Of a stretch of DNA of 64,000 nt, positions 3,346-64,000 are shown in pieces. Every line of letters starts with the position of its first letter. Position 1 is the first letter of the stretch. Below the pieces are notes generated by a model. It was not told the origin of the DNA. It saw only the letters and a list, made by a program, of their open reading frames with translations, and did not search any database. The DNA is from an uncultured Candidatus Saccharibacteria bacterium (GTDB lineage: Bacteria > Patescibacteriota > Minisyncoccia > Phycocordibacterales > UBA9973): assembly GCA_964404925.1 (NCBI GenBank), contig CAYOLW010000005.1, forward strand, positions 5,458-69,457. The letters are read 5' to 3'. A program made the translations under genes and the position numbers.

Positions 3346-5574
3346 ATGCGATTATTAATTGTGGAGTCGCCTTCCAAGGCCAAAACAATAGAGAAGTACC
3401 TAGATGGCGCCTCCTCCTCATCGGCGGACAAGTACACCGTGCGTGCTTCTGTTGGTCATATCCGGGATTTACCTAAGTCAAACAAGAAAGCCATAGATAT
3501 AGAAGGAGGCTTTATCCCCCACTATGAGATAAGTAAAGGCAAAGAAAAGGTAGTCCATGAATTACAACACCTAGCCGAGAAGGCCAGTGAAGTACTACTA
3601 GCCACTGACCCTGACCGTGAAGGCGAGGCTATCGCTTGGCACATAGAGGAATTACTGAAAGCTGACAAGAAAGTTAAAGCAAAAATAAAAAGAGTCACTT
3701 TTCATGAAATAACCAAAGAAGCTATTCTAGAAGCACTCAAAGAACCACGTGAAATAGACACAGATTTGCGTCGTGCCCAAGAAGCTCGCCGTGTGCTCGA
3801 CCGACTTGTGGGATACGATCTATCTGGAGTTATTTGGAAGAAGGTCCGCTACGGTCTATCTGCTGGGCGAGTACAATCCCCGGCCCTACGCATAATCATG
3901 GAACGTGAAAGAGAAATCCGAGCTTTTATCCCAGAAAAATATTGGAGGATTTGGGGTGAGTTTGAAACTGCTAAAAAAGCTGCTATCAGATTAGAGTGTA
4001 GCGAAGAACCACGTGATGAAAAATTGGTAGATAAAATAATGCAAGTAGGCAATGCCGGCACTTGGGTTATTGATGGTGTCAAAGAATCCGAACAAAAGCG
4101 TGCACCCCGTGCACCGTTTACTACTTCCACATTGCAGCAGACAGCGAGTTCAAGACTCGGCTACTCACCTTCTCGTACCATGCAGATAGCGCAGAAATTG
4201 TATGAAGCTGGACATATAACATACATGCGTACCGATAGTACTAATCTAGCTAAAGTTGCCCAAGACCAAATACTTGCCTTGATCGATAAAAAGTTCGGTA
4301 AAGACTATGTTGTACCGAGAGTATATAAAACAAAATCCAAAAATGCTCAAGAAGCCCATGAAGCCATCCGACCAACTCATTTTAATGTAGAACATGCGGG
4401 TACAGATGAACAACAAAAATTGTATCGTCTAATCTGGGAGCGTACAGTATCCAGCCAAATGGCTGATGCCAAAGTTCTGCGAACTAAACTAACTGCAGTT
4501 ATCGAAGGAGAAGAAGAAATTCCTCCGTTTAGCGCCAATGGTTCGAGGCTTCTTTTCCCAGGATGGCTAGCCGTAGATACCGCAGCCCGTGGTGAAGATG
4601 TAGAATTACCAGAATGCAAAGCTGGAGAAAAGTTGAAACTTTTGAAACTAGAAAACGAAGAGAAATTTACCGAACCGCCAGGCCGCTATAGCGAAGCTGG
4701 ATTAGTGAAAGAACTTGAATCTCGTGGTATAGGGCGACCTAGTACCTACGCATCTATCATGCGTACCATAGAAGAACGTGGTTATGTAAGAAAAGAAAAT
4801 AAAACACTTTTCCCCACCGATACAGGTGAAGTAGTCTCTGATTTCCTAGAGAATAATTTTGCTAACTATATTTCAGATACATTTACTGCCGAAATGGAAG
4901 ACGAGCTTGATGAGATTTCTCGAGGTGAACGTGATTATGAGAAAACCTTAAGAGAGTTCTACACTCCTTTTATCAAAGAAGTAAAAGAAAAAGATAAATT
5001 AGCCAAAGCTACGGACCTGGGTGCTGCGCCGGAAAATATAAAATGTCCTAAATGTGGTAAAAGCATGATAATAAAGCTTGCTCGAGCTGGTAAATTCTAT
5101 TCTTGTTCTGACTACCCTGATTGTACTGGTGCACTCATGCTAGACGGAACAGAACTCCAAGGTCCAAAAGAAATAGGAGAAATGTGTCCCCTATGTGGCG
5201 AGAAGAAAGGTAAATCCGGAGGTGGTAAACTCGTCATCCGAGAACGTCGCGACGGTACCGGCACATTTATATCTTGCTCACGTTATCCAAAATGTAAATT
5301 TATTAAAGAAGACGAGGAAGAGAAGAAAAGGAAAATGACAGATGTAGAATGCCCTACCTGCAAAAAGGGTTTTATGATGGAACGCCGAGGAAGATTCGGT
5401 ATATTCTATTCTTGCTCAAACTATCCAGACTGCAAAAATGCCATTAAAGCCAAACCAACTGGTCGCATATGTGACATGTGTAGTTCATTAATGATGGAAG
5501 GCACCAAGACAATCCCAGAGAGATGCAGTAATAATAAATGCCCTAACCACCGACCAGATAAACTCAAAAAATAA
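3346..5574 (+). CDS. topA: DNA topoisomerase I with C-terminal multiple zinc-ribbon domains
   Basis: MRLLIVESPSKAKTIEKYL Toprim N-terminus, GYITYMRTDS active-site Tyr region, four C4 zinc ribbons (CPKCGK, CPLCGE, CPTCKKG, CDMC); ORF track used an upstream TTG, and the ATG at 3346 fits the family N-terminus. Confidence 0.9.
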   Translation: MRLLIVESPSKAKTIEKYLDGASSSSADKYTVRASVGHIRDLPKSNKKAIDIEGGFIPHYEISKGKEKVVHELQHLAEKASEVLLATDPDREGEAIAWHIEELLKADKKVKAKIKRVTFHEITKEAILEALKEPREIDTDLRRAQEARRVLDRLVGYDLSGVIWKKVRYGLSAGRVQSPALRIIMEREREIRAFIPEKYWRIWGEFETAKKAAIRLECSEEPRDEKLVDKIMQVGNAGTWVIDGVKESEQKRAPRAPFTTSTLQQTASSRLGYSPSRTMQIAQKLYEAGHITYMRTDSTNLAKVAQDQILALIDKKFGKDYVVPRVYKTKSKNAQEAHEAIRPTHFNVEHAGTDEQQKLYRLIWERTVSSQMADAKVLRTKLTAVIEGEEEIPPFSANGSRLLFPGWLAVDTAARGEDVELPECKAGEKLKLLKLENEEKFTEPPGRYSEAGLVKELESRGIGRPSTYASIMRTIEERGYVRKENKTLFPTDTGEVVSDFLENNFANYISDTFTAEMEDELDEISRGERDYEKTLREFYTPFIKEVKEKDKLAKATDLGAAPENIKCPKCGKSMIIKLARAGKFYSCSDYPDCTGALMLDGTELQGPKEIGEMCPLCGEKKGKSGGGKLVIRERRDGTGTFISCSRYPKCKFIKEDEEEKKRKMTDVECPTCKKGFMMERRGRFGIFYSCSNYPDCKNAIKAKPTGRICDMCSSLMMEGTKTIPERCSNNKCPNHRPDKLKK

Positions 5575-60820: not shown

Positions 60821-60985
60821 ACTCTATTGAATTTTCAAAAAATTCGTTCTTTGACACTCATTCCCAGGCTCAGGCCTCGGGATAAAAATATTTTCGAGTT
60901 ATCTAATAACCCGAAAAAAGTAAACTTTCACCCGCCCTTCCGCCTTCGGAATGGGTATTTCATCATTCATCAAAAATTTTTAAAG

Positions 60986-61552
60986 ATGAAAAAAATCATC
61001 ATTCTCGTAACATCATTTCTTTTTACATTCACCTCATGGTCTCAAAAAACCGACAGCTTAAAAGTCTATGAGTCAAAAAGAGAAGTGGTTTTTAGTTCGT
61101 CGCTATTTACCGAACAGTACAGAACTAAGAACCAATTCTCGACTGATAGTGTAAATTCTTTTGGGTTCGAGGAACGTATGCGACTAAACAGGCGTAAAAT
61201 TAATTCTCTATTTATTTTTCTTGAAATAAAGTATGAGGTTCAAAAATCAGAAGATTTTGCAAACAACGGTCCTTCTAACTTTTTTCACGAAGAAGGTGTC
61301 CAATTTGGTGGTGGATTTGGAAGTAATTTTAAGTTTTTTTCAATCGGTAAAAAAATACACTTTGGAATGGGCCTCGACACAAAATTAGATATTATTAGAT
61401 CTACTGAGTATGGAATTGTAGCAATTACAATGGAGCCGTTCTTGGAACTTTCCTATCATGAGAAATGCTCTTTGGAGGCAGGTCTTAGATTGGACCCTTA
61501 TTTGGCAACATTGAATTGCCCAAGCGTTAGGTTTACGTACCTATTTTTTTAA
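60986..61552 (+). CDS. secreted hypothetical protein (signal peptide MKKIIILVTSFLFTFTSWSQ)
   Basis: In-frame internal ATG preceded by the promoter and long leader; the upstream part of the track's ORF (60827-60985) is probably 5' UTR. Confidence 0.4.
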   Translation: MKKIIILVTSFLFTFTSWSQKTDSLKVYESKREVVFSSSLFTEQYRTKNQFSTDSVNSFGFEERMRLNRRKINSLFIFLEIKYEVQKSEDFANNGPSNFFHEEGVQFGGGFGSNFKFFSIGKKIHFGMGLDTKLDIIRSTEYGIVAITMEPFLELSYHEKCSLEAGLRLDPYLATLNCPSVRFTYLFF

Positions 61553-61677: not shown

Positions 61678-62010
61678 ATGAAAAGAATACTCACCCTGCT
61701 GGCATTTTTATGCTGGCAAACTGCGCACGCACAGGAAAGGTCTTGGCTATTGCAAGCCACTACATTTTCAACTCTTAATGATGGGTATATCATCGAACCC
61801 GAGATTACTTTTGTTTTAGAAGACGAGTTTTCTTTTCATGAATTCTCAATCAATTCCTCTGGAAGTTTTTGCACATTGAATGGAATCGTAGCGGGAAACA
61901 ACTACCCGTATATTTATTTATCATACAATCCTTTCAATTCAACTTCCTATTCAAGTATGGGGGTTTCGCGTGATGTAAATTTGGGGAAGAAAATTGGCGC
62001 AACAGCCTAA
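61678..62010 (+). CDS. small secreted hypothetical protein (signal peptide MKRILTLLAFLCWQTAHAQ)
   Basis: ORF plus signal peptide. Confidence 0.4.
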   Translation: MKRILTLLAFLCWQTAHAQERSWLLQATTFSTLNDGYIIEPEITFVLEDEFSFHEFSINSSGSFCTLNGIVAGNNYPYIYLSYNPFNSTSYSSMGVSRDVNLGKKIGATA

Positions 62011-62033: not shown

Positions 62034-63167
62034 TTACACTGATTTTGCTACAGCTTGGGCGAGGCCTTTGTCGAACATGGTTGGCAATATCTTTTCAGTG
62101 GTTGGCTTTTTCACAAATTTGGCTATAGCTTCTGCTGCACGGATAAATACAGATTCACTAAATTGTTTTTTCTTATCGATTATTCCACGGAAAAGGCCTG
62201 GGAACCCCAGAGAGTTATTTACTTGGTTTGGAAAGTCTGACCGCCCGGTGGCTATGATGAATACTCCTGCCTTTTTTGCTACATCTGGCAATACTTCTGG
62301 TACTGGGTTTGCAAGGGCGAAAATTATCGGACGCTCGGCCATGCTTTTAATCATTTCAGCGTTTAGCATGTTGGCCTTGGAAAGGCCGATAAATATGTGC
62401 GAACCTTTTAATACCTCTCTCAATTCCCCTTTTTTATTTTCTTTATTTGTTTTCTCAGCCAGTATTTTTTTATATTCATTTAAATCTCCTCGATCTTTAC
62501 ATATCGCACCTTTGGTGTCACACACGATAATATTTTTAAATCCATAAGCAAGTAGCAAATTCGCCACAGCTATTCCAGCGGACCCAGCACCGTTTATGAC
62601 TACGCGGGCATCATCTTTCTTTAGTTTCCTTAATTTAAGTGCATTTATGAGCCCTGCGAGTACCACAGTAGCTGTACCGTGCTGATCATCATGCATAACA
62701 GGAATGTCGAGTTCTTGGCGCAGTCTATCCTCTATTTCAAAGCATCTCGGTGCAGATATATCCTCAAGGTTTATTCCGCCGAAAACTGGAGAAATGTTTT
62801 TCACCGTCTTAATTATCTCTTCAGTGTCTTGGGTATCAAGGCATATGGGGAATGCATCCAAGTTACCGAACTTTTTAAAAATCGCTGCCTTGCCTTCCAT
62901 TACAGGTATAGCACCATAAGCACCTAAATTACCTAGCCCCAGCACCGCTGAGCCATCAGAGATTATTGCTACTGTATTTTTCTTGAGAGTGTACAGATGA
63001 GCATTCTTTTTGTCTTTCGCAACTTCAAGTGACACACCAGCCACGCCAGGAGTATATGCTAGAGATAAATCTTCTTTATTATTTAATTTAACCTTCGGTG
63101 CAAGCTCAATTTTACCTCCATGTTTTTTGTGTAATGCTAAAGATTTTTTGTAGAAATTATTTTGCAT
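62034..63167 (-). CDS. maeB: NAD(P)-dependent malic enzyme (small MaeB-type, no PTA domain)
   Basis: YTPGVAGVSLEVAKD...; Rossmann GAGSAGIAVANLL; 377 aa. Confidence 0.8.
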   Translation of the reverse strand: MQNNFYKKSLALHKKHGGKIELAPKVKLNNKEDLSLAYTPGVAGVSLEVAKDKKNAHLYTLKKNTVAIISDGSAVLGLGNLGAYGAIPVMEGKAAIFKKFGNLDAFPICLDTQDTEEIIKTVKNISPVFGGINLEDISAPRCFEIEDRLRQELDIPVMHDDQHGTATVVLAGLINALKLRKLKKDDARVVINGAGSAGIAVANLLLAYGFKNIIVCDTKGAICKDRGDLNEYKKILAEKTNKENKKGELREVLKGSHIFIGLSKANMLNAEMIKSMAERPIIFALANPVPEVLPDVAKKAGVFIIATGRSDFPNQVNNSLGFPGLFRGIIDKKKQFSESVFIRAAEAIAKFVKKPTTEKILPTMFDKGLAQAVAKSV

Positions 63168-63174
63168 GTTGGTC

Positions 63175-63205
63175 AGTATAACATAAAAAATCTGAGCTTT
63201 TACTC
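63175..63205. terminator. bidirectional terminator hairpin AAAAAATCTGAGC-TTTTA-CTCAGATTTTTT
   Basis: 7-bp stem flanked by A6/T6. Confidence 0.6.
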
Positions 63206-63229
63206 AGATTTTTTACTAAAGTGGTGTCT

Positions 63230-63600
63230 CTATTGTACCAAGCTCGAACGATTTTTCAAAACAAATAGCTTATCGCACATCCGTGCGCTAAAGCGCCTCT
63301 GTGCGAAGCACAGAGCTTTTCCAAAGGAAAAGGACGGAATGTGCGAATACAAATGCGGACTCGGTTTTGCGAAACTATTTTCTGGGGAAAGGATTCGCAA
63401 AACCGAGACTAATCTTTTTGAAATTCGGCGGGGATTTTGGATTTCGCCCGCGCGGAGGAGGGGTCTGGGGAGGAATCCGCGCGGGCTCGCTTTTGGATTT
63501 TTTGGCGGGGCGGGCATTAAGAAAGAAAATACAGAATATTGAAATCTCGGCAAAGCCGAGATACAACATTTAGTATTGTGCTTGACCCACCCTCCCGTTC
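63230..63600. ncRNA. GC-rich, highly structured non-coding island (candidate structured RNA or cis-regulatory leader; class unassigned)
   Basis: Local GC well above the window average. Perfect hairpins: GCGCAC-ATCC-GTGCGC, CTCTGTGC-GAA-GCACAGAG, CTCGGTTTTGCGAA-N20-TTCGCAAAACCGAG (14 bp), CCGCGCGG-N22-CCGCGCGG, ATCTCGG-CAAAG-CCGAGAT. Only overlapping ORFs on both strands. Confidence 0.3.
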
Positions 63601-63618
63601 GCGCACAAAAATTGCTCC

Positions 63619-63963
63619 CTATTTTTTAGAATAATGTTTATCAAACTCTTTAAAAATTTTAGGGGTATAAAAATCTTGTTTAGAACTCTTTGGATTTTTA
63701 GGATTTAGTTTTCTTGTCATAGAGAAATTTTTGGTCATCAACCCTCTACGAATTTTATGATATTTTTGATTCGATCTAAAATCAGAATATCTTTTCTTTA
63801 GTTCGTCTGTTAGGGAATTATAATCTAAAGAAAATTCTTTCAAAAGTTCGTCTTCATTAATTCGCATTGCAGGAGCGTTTGGGTCATCAGTTATTCTTAT
63901 ATTTGTTTCTGTAAAATTTTTATTCTTACCGATAATCGAAACAGGTCTGACTTCACCAATCAA
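63619..63963 (-). CDS. hypothetical basic protein
   Basis: ORF only. Confidence 0.3.
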   Translation of the reverse strand: MIGEVRPVSIIGKNKNFTETNIRITDDPNAPAMRINEDELLKEFSLDYNSLTDELKKRYSDFRSNQKYHKIRRGLMTKNFSMTRKLNPKNPKSSKQDFYTPKIFKEFDKHYSKK

Positions 63964-64000
63964 TTTAAGAACGGGTCGCCCTTTTTCTTTAAAACTTCCT

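Follow-up and report, generated by a model that had tools for sequence, protein, structure and literature searches.

A folded inverted repeat widespread in Patescibacteria and its probable role at the edges of variable cassettes

The window analyzed here, a 64,000-nt stretch from an uncultured Candidatus Saccharibacteria bacterium, carries near its right end a segment that an earlier note had singled out as a GC-rich, hairpin-dense island between two minus-strand genes. One of these genes is maeB (62034 to 63167), encoding a short malic enzyme of 377 aa; together with its own extended −10 motif it occupies 62034 to 63183 on the minus strand and is a neighbor outside the element described below. 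The supposed second gene is an open reading frame (ORF) cut by the window end (63619 to beyond 64000, minus strand), which reads toward the island and has neither a Pfam domain nor a homolog among 5.8 billion proteins. The compositional contrast is real, in that 63218 to 63622 is ∼50% GC compared with a window mean of 38%, and 200-nt windows across 63300 to 63599 have GC fractions of 0.50 to 0.51 (window mean, 0.381). Mutually overlapping ORFs are also present within the island as noted (126 aa and 90 aa on the plus strand, 107 aa and 64 aa on the minus strand), with no Pfam matches. Folding of the island is more stable than that of shuffled sequences on both strands (z = −5.1 for the plus strand and −8.6 for the minus strand), and none of 100 shuffles is equally stable.

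No resemblance to RNase P, tmRNA, SRP, or 6S RNA had been recognized by eye, and this is borne out by the Rfam 15 covariance models, which include these families as well as riboswitches, HEARO, GOLLD, ROOL, and others, none of which reaches its gathering threshold; between 62900 and 64000 at E ≤10 the best scores are 17 to 24 bits, against thresholds of 40 to 86. Rfam reports two tRNAs and nothing else over the whole window, and on 12 homologous loci it reports tRNAs and one DUF805b within cargo, and nothing else. The outer end of the island has a tRNA-like appearance (TGGTG...TTCGAA), a candidate that was rejected because its spacing matches neither a T-arm nor an acceptor stem and both ARAGORN and Rfam are silent.

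The island is organized as a series of distinct modules. The outer end (63222 to 63262, minus strand) carries a predicted promoter pointing outward, with a −35 TTGAAA (63259–63254), a 16-nt spacer, a TG, and a −10 TACAAT (63237–63232), a 10/12 match in a consensus scan; its predicted start at ∼63225 coincides with the repeat boundary, and the same site is called in two other loci (L082 and L049). It is followed by a four-way junction (63273 to 63346; MFE fold, CM R1 81.6 bits at 63272–63347), in which P1, a long-range stem absent from the earlier note (63273–63284 with 63334–63346, A63338 bulged), joins three hairpins: P2 (63285–63288 with 63293–63296), P3 (a perfect 8-bp stem, 63297–63304 with 63308–63315, with loop GAA and motif GCGAAGC), and P4 (a perfect 7-bp stem, 63316–63322 with 63326–63332). 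P5 (63357 to 63410) is a perfect 14-bp hairpin (63360–63373 with 63394–63407) that is lengthened by G63358-C63409 and G63357·T63410, and has a conserved, asymmetric, oriented 20-nt loop, ACTATTTTCTGGGGAAAGGA. A linker conserved in the alignments (AATCTTTTTGAAATTCGGCGGGGATTTTGGATTTC, 63411 to 63445) leads to P6 (63446 to 63486), an 11-bp GC hairpin (63446–63456 with 63476–63486) that holds the CCGCGCGG pair and has a conserved G-rich loop, GGAGGGGTCTGGGGAGGAA. The alignments then define a T-rich tract (CTTTTGGATTTTTTGG) with GGCGGGGCGGGC (63487 to 63517), not called by a terminator scan, which marks the inner limit of the sequence common to both arms in paired copies. An inner extension (63518 to 63622; nhmmer model positions 300–404) is found in a subset of copies (8/39 in the alignment) and in one arm only of each pair; it contains P7, a perfect 8-bp stem (63544–63551 with 63555–63562), and a candidate hairpin P8 (63576–63581 with 63603–63608) with a C-rich loop, CCCACCCTCCC, and compensatory variants are seen for both. 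The earlier count of at least five perfect stem-loops, one with a 14-bp stem, is therefore correct, except that P7 had been given as 7 bp at 63543–63561.

The maeB promoter and the outward promoter are separated by a hairpin with 13-bp arms and a 6-nt loop, flanked by an A-run and a T-run (63184 to 63215), which is immediately external to the repeat and terminator-like in both directions. This is the bidirectional terminator described previously, although its position had been given as 63175–63205, and it is not called by the consensus terminator scan. Beside six other copies (L021, L075, L007, L037, L088, and L020), hairpin and T-run structures unrelated to this one are located at the same place.

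The fold is strongly conserved. Independent folding gives the same four-way junction in 52 of 60 homologs, and base pairs are kept by compensatory changes beyond both shuffled and slid controls. In alignment A3, 92% of cells are paired and 24 of 30 pairs have changed on both sides (174 cells); none of 500 shuffles reaches the observed value, and slid alignments are 34 to 61% paired. An independent metagenome set (A6) behaves similarly, with 96.9% pairing, 222 double-change cells, no shuffle of 500 reaching the observed value, and 29 to 68% pairing when slid. P5 covaries when ascertained independently, with 11 of its 16 pairs changed on both sides, and for P6, five or more versions of the stem covary while the loop is kept. 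The core of the repeat is thus a four-way junction and two long hairpins whose G-rich loops are conserved, and it covaries very strongly. Of the structured RNA envisaged earlier, the conserved and selected fold stands, rich in compensatory changes and foreign to Rfam; the proposed role as a maeB leader does not, and an independent noncoding RNA lacks a conserved promoter facing the core (see below).

The pairing is almost exclusively Watson-Crick. Among 142 distinct sequences with 3819 Watson-Crick cells, internal mismatches flanked by Watson-Crick pairs comprise 19 G·T and 26 A·C, such that G·U does not outnumber A·C in the stems and each accounts for <1% of cells; three ways of testing for a wobble asymmetry between the strands found none. 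We also note that several features fit RNA better than DNA. The T-tract after P6 is conserved on the plus strand only, the G·U at the base of P5 on that strand is kept in 64 of 66 copies, conserved asymmetric loops, purine-rich and specifically G-rich, recur in P4a, P5, and P6, and some copies have optional inserted hairpins or an alternative large 5′ domain.

Homologs of the whole island number more than 200 across genomes and metagenomes of Patescibacteria, and alignments over its full length show 69 to 97% identity. The exact P5 pattern is present in 99 GTDB stretches, nearly all from Patescibacteria, and in no viral contig scanned; when metagenome loci were retrieved with an independent P3 probe, 119 of 120 contained the island. 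The window itself has no further copies (blastn-short and nhmmer), and no metagenome locus matches its flanks. A literature search that included the literal sequence found the repeat described nowhere, and it appears to be a widespread and previously undescribed folded repeat of ∼300 to 400 bp in Patescibacteria (candidate phyla radiation; CPR).

Copies of the repeat are commonly paired. Two or more copies per locus occur in 13 GTDB loci and 31 metagenome loci, and the arrangement is nearly always a plus-strand copy followed by a minus-strand copy, with the outer ends facing out. An inverted partner accompanies ∼60% of copies with enough flank, 1.7 to 5.8 kb away and on one defined side: on the inner side, 22 of 36 copies have one at up to 4 kb, compared with 1 of 53 with any partner on the outer side. 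Solitary copies also exist, since ∼35 to 40% of those with a long inner flank lack a partner over the next 4 to 6 kb. The arms are 284 to 418 bp and are 98 to 100% identical in most pairs, and the 1.7 to 5.8 kb of cargo that they bracket is unrelated between loci, including toxins, surface proteins, transporters, cell-wall enzymes, and ORFans. A type III toxin-antitoxin system, in which a structured RNA would precede mazF-like cargo, was rejected as an overall account, as MazF comes first among the cargo genes in only ∼10 loci. No transposase domain was found among the cargo ORFs tested by Pfam, and no consistent direct repeat suggestive of target-site duplication is present at nine precisely mapped pairs.

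The promoters follow the orientation of the repeat. In distinct outer modules the motif TGnTAnnnT is present in 95 of 123 on the outward strand but in only 3 of 123 on the other, and a promoter motif on the inner side points inward in 45 of 103 compared with 8 of 103 in the other direction. The outer 45 bp thus hold a conserved outward promoter and many copies have an inward one, which places divergent promoters on the two sides of the folded core.

The commonest neighbor is a large serine recombinase with Resolvase, Recombinase, and Zn_ribbon_recom domains, encoded outside the pair, on the outer side, in 33 to 43 loci; it is present at 25 of 134 evaluable outer ends (∼19%), divergently in 21 of these. 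Relative to the recombinase gene, the repeat is 5′ and 125 to 370 nt away, with the second copy kilobases off. At seven loci the recombinase gene abuts a tRNA gene, its 3′ end overlapping the tRNA 3′ end (tRNA-Val, Arg, Glu, Ser, Arg, Ser, and Val), with differing recombinase lineages at differing tRNAs (six tRNA species). The junction with the host is therefore likely to be there rather than at the repeat, and a search of these seven loci for an att-like repeat of the 3′ 50 nt of the tRNA found none; a 7-nt repeat, GGTGCGT, in L017 is at most suggestive. There is no recombinase gene in the 64-kb window.

Inverted pairs that surround cargo beside a recombinase gene point to the boundary of a mobile element rather than to a housekeeping RNA, and we conclude that 63222 to ∼63517 (to 63622 in this copy) is probably one arm of a long inverted repeat bounding a Patescibacteria-specific cassette element. 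Given that neither target-site duplications nor att-like repeats are seen, mobility is inferred from distribution only. The unit, either a recombinase gene with repeat-cargo-repeat or repeat-cargo-repeat alone, would be a small islet, integrative or variable, at hot spots linked to tRNA genes. The copy in the window would be the left arm, with cargo beginning at ∼63620 and any partner arm beyond 64000; the window ends 380 nt inside this presumed cargo. Each arm may drive transcription outward, and often inward as well, and may isolate the cassette. The likeliest role of the core is a cis-acting one as folded DNA, either as a cruciform extruded from the region between the divergent promoters or as a single strand that folds in transfer or recombination; alternatively, the fold could act on transcripts from either strand. 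We lean toward a fold acting at the DNA level or on both strands, and if it works as DNA, the repeats would be a rare bacterial example of structure-selected nested palindromes.

Patescibacteria represent a large part of bacterial diversity and have genomes of ∼1 Mb, and the processes by which they acquire and shed accessory genes are little understood. The element is widespread in Paceibacteria-type lineages, is tied to tRNA-abutting large serine recombinases, and marks where variable cassettes begin and end; an HMM or covariance model would therefore offer a handle with which to find and delimit CPR accessory-gene islets. The fold is compact and strongly covarying, and its chemistry (DNA or RNA) and its partner are open to direct test. 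More speculatively, and in our estimation with low probability, these are a new class of CPR cassette in which the inverted nested-hairpin folds are the functional substrate, either as folded DNA or as RNA with the large serine recombinase. The DNA version would entail rolling-hairpin or cruciform-dependent transfer or rearrangement, and in the RNA version the repeat RNA would work alongside the recombinase. To our knowledge, large serine recombinases have no known use of RNA, and this would be the first RNA-assisted serine recombinase; either version would mean that genes enter and leave the most reduced bacterial genomes by a mechanism new to biology.

Several known systems share parts of this organization. 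Tycheposons are integrative elements that carry cargo and target tRNA genes in the streamlined genome of Prochlorococcus; they use tyrosine recombinases (474 of 501) and have partial tRNA direct repeats at their flanks (bioRxiv 10.1101/2020.12.28.424599). The Patescibacteria units similarly are small islets of recombinase and cargo at tRNA genes in a reduced genome, with recombinase lineages matched to different tRNAs, many units without a recombinase, and very variable, largely unannotated cargo. They differ in using a large serine recombinase, in that partial-tRNA repeats were not found at the seven loci, and in their structured inverted repeats of 300 to 400 bp, none of which are described for tycheposons (bioRxiv 10.1101/2020.12.28.424599). 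The near-identical inverted ends around a segment, the outward promoter at the extremity, and the tendency of assemblies to break there, at contig ends, recall the terminal inverted repeats of transposons, IS elements, and MITEs. However, typical IS ends are one-tenth as long as these arms, which contain a covarying multihairpin fold, and unlike transposons, there is no target-site duplication and no cargo transposase, and only ∼2 to 4 copies per genome.

The inverted terminal repeats of parvoviruses are T- or Y-shaped nested palindromes. Here also, the terminal inverted repeat contains a large palindrome (P1) with smaller ones (P2 to P4) nested inside it, and only Watson-Crick pairing is seen, as a DNA fold would show; the GCGAAGC motif of P3 is known as a hyperstable DNA mini-hairpin. 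In contrast to parvoviruses, the units sit in bacterial chromosomes, their arms carry promoters, no HUH/Rep gene is seen in the sampled cargo, and no sign of a linear single-stranded DNA form is seen. Integron attC sites are likewise folded, structure-selected sites that bound variable cassettes by a divergent recombinase gene, with structure conserved more than sequence. Each attC, though, is a single imperfect hairpin of 60 to 140 nt with extrahelical bases, in direct orientation and recognized by the tyrosine integrase IntI, whereas the Patescibacteria repeats have a multidomain fold, are inverted, accompany a serine recombinase, and have no strand-specific features. Finally, IS110 bridge RNAs and the omega RNAs of IscB/TnpB (HEARO) are also encoded by structured noncoding end segments of 150 to 400 nt beside a recombinase or nuclease gene, but the repeat has no Rfam match, is duplicated at both ends, lacks its own promoter, and pairs by Watson-Crick only.

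Other readings of the island need to be weighed. A conventional one-strand small RNA is less likely than a cassette boundary folded as DNA, although it is the likeliest of the alternatives. In this scenario, which we regard as possible but doubtful, a free-standing sRNA gene on the plus strand (∼63262–63506) would use the four-way junction as a scaffold, its Shine-Dalgarno-like GGGAGG/AGGA loops in P5 and P6 would bind a protein or pyrimidine-rich RNA in a sponge-like manner, P6 and the U-tract would terminate transcription, and the inverted pairs would be a by-product of cassette insertion beside the gene. Such a gene would account for the strong covariation, including that of a long-range stem and multiway junction, for a GC-rich island in an AT-rich genome, and for the asymmetric G-rich loops, one-strand T-tract, and conserved P5-base G·U; variable insertions are also typical of RNA families, and this would be a new and abundant noncoding RNA class missing from Rfam. 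Nonetheless, no conserved promoter faces the core: canonical extended −10 promoters point away from it, none is found upstream of P1 on the plus strand in 69 distinct copies, and the weak −10-like hexamers beside P1 have predicted starts inside a stem whose outer pairs covary. The scarcity of G·U, no commoner than A·C, is also at odds with a one-strand RNA, as is P6 as a terminator, with a 19-nt loop, a gap of 4 to 5 nt before the T-run, and no call in the terminator scan. The strict inverted pairing of arms with 98 to 100% identity likewise argues against it.

Alternatively, the repeat or its 48-bp P5 dyad could be the recombination site of the large serine recombinase, with cargo inverted, excised, or exchanged, although we think this unlikely. 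The recombinase gene is the commonest neighbor and is consistently placed, the sites occur as inverted pairs, cargo orientation relative to the recombinase varies among loci, and P5, with its 14-bp arms and 20-bp asymmetric center, is about the size of an attP site. However, recombinases are present at only ∼19% of outer ends, their junctions resemble tRNA 3′ ends rather than the repeat, and diverged recombinases (E = 1e-51 to 1e-108) adjoin identical P5 stems. A dimer binding double-stranded DNA would not need nested covarying stems, and since the repeat is symmetric, inversion would leave everything outside the cassette unchanged. No inversion or presence/absence polymorphism was caught among assemblies sharing cargo, which are collinear or uninformative, with one locus collinear in four assemblies.

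Less probable still is that the island is locally the structured 3′ UTR or terminator region of the minus-strand ORF (63963–63619), ending at the 63215–63184 hairpin. This ORF does read into the island and ends at its edge, the minus strand folds well beyond chance (z = −8.6), Watson-Crick-only stems fold alike on both strands, and the terminator-like hairpin comes next. But the inner neighbors of other copies are often transcribed away from the repeat from their own promoter, the ORF has no homologs and may not be a gene, and conservation over more than 200 unrelated contexts is left unexplained.

The suggestion that the island is a riboswitch-like 5′ leader of maeB can hardly be correct; the island is strongly structured and upstream of maeB in the minus-strand sense, but synteny and promoter evidence refute it, as maeB has its own extended −10 (TGTTATACT, 63175–63183) only seven nt before its ATG at 63167, making the mRNA effectively leaderless, the hairpin with its T-run stands between the island and this promoter, the >200 family copies are beside unrelated genes with no maeB linkage found elsewhere, and no Rfam riboswitch matches. 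Moreover, TGTTATACT is kept in maeB relatives without the island: at the corresponding place, L001–L004 (maeB 87 to 92% identical) have a 30-bp gap, tRNA-Tyr, or another gene instead, with tRNA-Tyr lying upstream of maeB in relatives of the window.

The segment at 63218-63622, beside the minus-strand malic-enzyme gene maeB, is a genuine feature beyond chance, and most of what the earlier note had described there holds. It is GC-rich (50-51% GC in 200-nt windows across 63300-63599, versus a window mean of 38.1%), a repeat finder places perfect inverted repeats of 14, 11, 8, 8, and 7 bp within a few bases of where they had been reported, and the overlapping open reading frames (ORFs), which had been called spurious, all lack a Pfam match. 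The structure proposed as a bidirectional terminator at 63175-63205 is present as a 13-bp hairpin between an A-run and a T-run, but lies at 63184-63215. Folding of the 405 nt yields −152 kcal/mol for the plus strand (z = −5.1) and −150 kcal/mol for the minus strand (z = −8.6), with no shuffle equally stable for either. In the minimum-energy fold, 63273-63284 also pairs with 63334-63346 over 12 bp, a long-range stem that the earlier note had missed and that joins three of the hairpins into a four-way junction.

This island, present once in the window, belongs to a repeat family. In GTDB species-representative genomes, a pattern that fixed the 14-bp hairpin stem but left the loop length free found 99 stretches, with few exceptions in Patescibacteria (Nomura-, Yanofsky-, Vogel-, Taylor-, Staskawicz-, Kerfeld-, Buchanan-, Moran-, and Magasanikbacteria, and 'Paceibacterota'). 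Many matches to the pattern for P5, one of two long hairpins of the core, lie ~100 nt from contig ends; viral contigs scanned for the same pattern gave none. The whole of 63218-63622 aligns to the hairpin loci at 69-97% identity (BLAST and an iterated nhmmer profile), so homology extends beyond the hairpin, and an independent probe for the junction stem P3 (GCGCCTCTGTGCGAAGCACAGAGCTT) recovered at least 120 metagenome contigs, with the island on 119 of the 120 matches listed. The P5 loop is conserved and asymmetric, and an orientation can therefore be assigned to every copy. In a subfamily (loci L027:1295-1824, L037:4005-4416, L063:9-430, and L060), a different, highly structured 5′ domain of ~220 nt replaces the ~75-nt junction, while P5 and the second long hairpin, P6, are kept.

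We found two or more copies in 13 GTDB loci and 31 metagenome loci, nearly always as a plus copy followed by a minus copy at a spacing of 1.7 to 5.8 kb, the arms being 284 to 418 bp long and, in most loci, 98-100% identical. An inverted partner is present for 22 of the 36 copies having at least 4 kb of inner (3′) sequence, and on the outer side 1 of 53 copies has any partner. The enclosed cargo genes are unrelated from locus to locus (an ABC transporter; enolase/pyruvate kinase; a 1129-aa LVIVD/peptidoglycan-binding protein; an FGE-sulfatase/amidase protein; MazF-like toxins; XRE regulators; and many ORFans), and nine precisely mapped pairs show no target-site duplication. We note that a MazF/PemK-like toxin is often the first cargo gene directly after the repeat (L005:1454-1843, L009:7127-7516, and ~8 further loci). 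It has a promoter to itself and lacks an antitoxin ORF upstream, and the succession of structured element, T-tract, and toxin bears a superficial resemblance to type III toxin-antitoxin loci. One cassette carries a DUF805b motif (Rfam RF02914) in its cargo (L038:6474-6508; 41.1 bits versus a threshold of 35.6).

The gene most often found next to the repeat encodes a large serine recombinase of ~520 aa (Resolvase, Recombinase, and Zn_ribbon_recom domains). It is located on the outer side, starting within 900 nt in 25 of 134 evaluable outer ends (21 of the 25 divergently), and is followed by ordinary host genes. In seven loci, involving six tRNA species, its 3′ end overlaps that of a convergent tRNA gene, which holds the recombinase stop codon (L014:7727-7801, Val-tac; L005:4061-4135, Arg-tct; L038:3586-3658, Glu-ctc; L049:1647-1734, Ser-gct; L082:5101-5175, Arg-gcg; L090:1921-2008, Ser-tga; L144:1971-2046, Val-tac). 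Such overlap is typical of tRNA-targeting integrases, and the gene arrangement suggests targeting of tRNA 3′ ends with an attachment site inside the end of the recombinase gene; partial-tRNA repeats were not found at these seven loci. The L014 recombinase C terminus, GDRGLEPL, appears to be translated from the tRNA-Val T-arm. The L017 unit has a 7-nt direct repeat, GGTGCGT, on both flanks (1086-1098 and 4444-4452), with one copy being the 3′ acceptor end of a tRNA-Tyr directly abutting a truncated repeat arm; the repeat may have been left by site-specific insertion at the tRNA end. The recombinase leader, from gene start to repeat (L006:~1740-1830, L014:5896-6218, L049:3243-3517, L082:6980-7047), contains a separate covarying GC hairpin (loop GAA/TTC) and motifs TTTTGGATT and TTCGGCGGGG that are similar to the linker and P6 region, as though the full repeat were preceded by an incomplete copy. 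We regard the repeat as probably marking the boundary of a tRNA-linked islet, either integrative or variable. Among described elements, the closest in lifestyle are the tycheposons of Prochlorococcus, whose enzymes are tyrosine recombinases, and for which structured inverted repeats like those of this family are not described in the tycheposon paper. A full-text literature search, literal hairpin sequence included, found no description of the repeat, and there is a modest chance that its mechanism is new.

In the window copy, the outer end (63222-63262) carries a predicted outward promoter of canonical form (TTGAAA, 16 nt, TG, TACAAT), followed by the four-way junction of stems P1 to P4 (63273-63346), P5 (63357-63410), P6 with its G-rich loop (63446-63486), and a T-rich tract with GGCGGGGCGGGC (63487-63517) at the inner limit of arm identity. 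An optional hairpin 3′ of the junction in other copies is missing here, and the inner extension with two more hairpins (63518-63622) occurs in a minority of copies, on only one arm per pair. Of four other copies scanned, two gave a promoter call at this site. Among 123 distinct outer modules, 95 have TGnTAnnnT on the outward strand and 3 have it on the other strand, and the predicted start falls at the edge of arm identity. This promoter faces the recombinase gene in recombinase-linked copies. In other copies, the window's included, unrelated hairpins with a T-run lie directly beyond it, which suggests that outward transcription is real and capped by the host. An inward extended −10 lies within 100 nt past the inner end in 45 of 103 copies (opposite strand, 8 of 103), often 6 to 8 nt from the cargo ATG, and the folded core thus lies between divergent promoters.

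The fold itself is conserved and selected, and to the extent of a folded nucleic acid the earlier proposal of a structured RNA is supported: related copies show compensatory changes beyond shuffles and slid controls. Independent folding recovered the junction in 52 of 60 homologs despite differing stem sequence. Across 48 junctions aligned with MAFFT, 92% of cells are paired and 24 of 30 pairs are changed on both sides (174 cells); none of 500 shuffles matches on any measure, pair-type count excepted, and sliding the partner drops pairing to 34-61%. A covariance model from this alignment found 74 forward copies in GTDB loci and 108 in metagenome loci. The metagenome set, unbiased for P1 and P4 because it was gathered via the P3 probe, has 96.9% of cells paired (slid control, 29-68%) and 222 double-change cells. 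P5 is invariant by ascertainment in the first copy set, which was collected by the P5 pattern; in the P3-ascertained set it covaries (for example, CGAGCAAAAGCAAA with TTTGCTTTTGCTCG), with 11 of 16 pairs changed on both sides, and P6 has at least five complementary stem versions with the loop retained. The island scored well below threshold for every Rfam 15 family, even at E ≤ 10, and two tRNAs are the window's sole Rfam content.

A conventional small RNA from the plus strand is the less probable reading, although a serious one, as the T-tract after P6 is conserved, 64 of 66 copies have a G·U at the P5 base, the loops are asymmetric, purine-rich, and Shine-Dalgarno-like, and insertions are variable. 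However, 142 distinct junctions contain 3819 Watson-Crick cells and, as internal mismatches, 19 of G·T type versus 26 of A·C type, so wobble is as rare as true mismatch and neither strand is favored. Moreover, no extended −10 facing the core was found, transcription from the −10-like hexamers abutting P1 would start within a stem with covarying outer pairs, and P6, which has a loop of 19 nt and is separated from the T-run by a gap, makes a poor terminator that the terminator scan did not call. Taking the RNA and DNA evidence together with the strict inverted pairing, we lean somewhat toward a fold that works at the DNA level or on transcripts from both strands. As DNA, it would be either a cruciform extruded between the divergent promoters or a folded single strand in transfer or recombination. 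The nesting of the stems and the presence of five different palindromes favor intramolecular folding over dimeric protein sites. In two unrelated copies (L007:158-234 and L103:6446-6521), the P3 stem is identical but its loop reads TTC, not GAA; the palindrome has flipped, as expected of a DNA-level hairpin inversion event. As leads only, GCGAAGC in P3 is a classic hyper-stable DNA mini-hairpin, and a large palindrome enclosing small ones within a terminal inverted repeat recalls parvoviral ITRs.

The window copy is in left-arm orientation: the outer end points toward maeB, and next to the inner end is an ORF for which no homologs were found. Because the window ends 380 nt past that inner end, a partner arm, any recombinase, and the tRNA-Tyr that relatives have at this spot would lie past base 64000; going by family frequencies, an inverted partner is probably present within a few kilobases. 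The source organism is a Paceibacteria-type CPR bacterium, with a malic enzyme 85-92% identical to Paceibacteria MAG proteins. The earlier suggestion of a riboswitch-like maeB leader is refuted, since maeB has its own extended −10 (TGTTATACT, 63175-63183) only seven nt 5′ of its ATG, which would make the mRNA effectively leaderless, the hairpin at 63184-63215 separates this promoter from the island, and the island is absent upstream of maeB in all four loci with close homologs, where a 30-bp gap, tRNA-Tyr, or another gene is found and the extended −10 and its distance to the ATG are identical. Many cargo genes of the element have the same layout (TGGTAAAAT, 6 nt, ATG), so genes without a leader may be frequent among these CPR genomes. 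Between maeB and typA/bipA are two plus-strand ORFs (60827-61552 and 61678-62010) with signal peptide-like N termini and no Pfam domain; relatives have different small ORFs or TerC there, which makes this a second variable spot, across maeB from the island. Upstream of maeB, tRNA-Tyr(gta) and its flanking GTCCCAAGGCAGAACAATCCGCCTTGGGGCGG hairpin are in opposite orientations in two of the relatives (L002:5755-6000 and L003:4795-5052), and this segment corresponds to window 63168-63700, a small inversion exactly where the island sits in the window.
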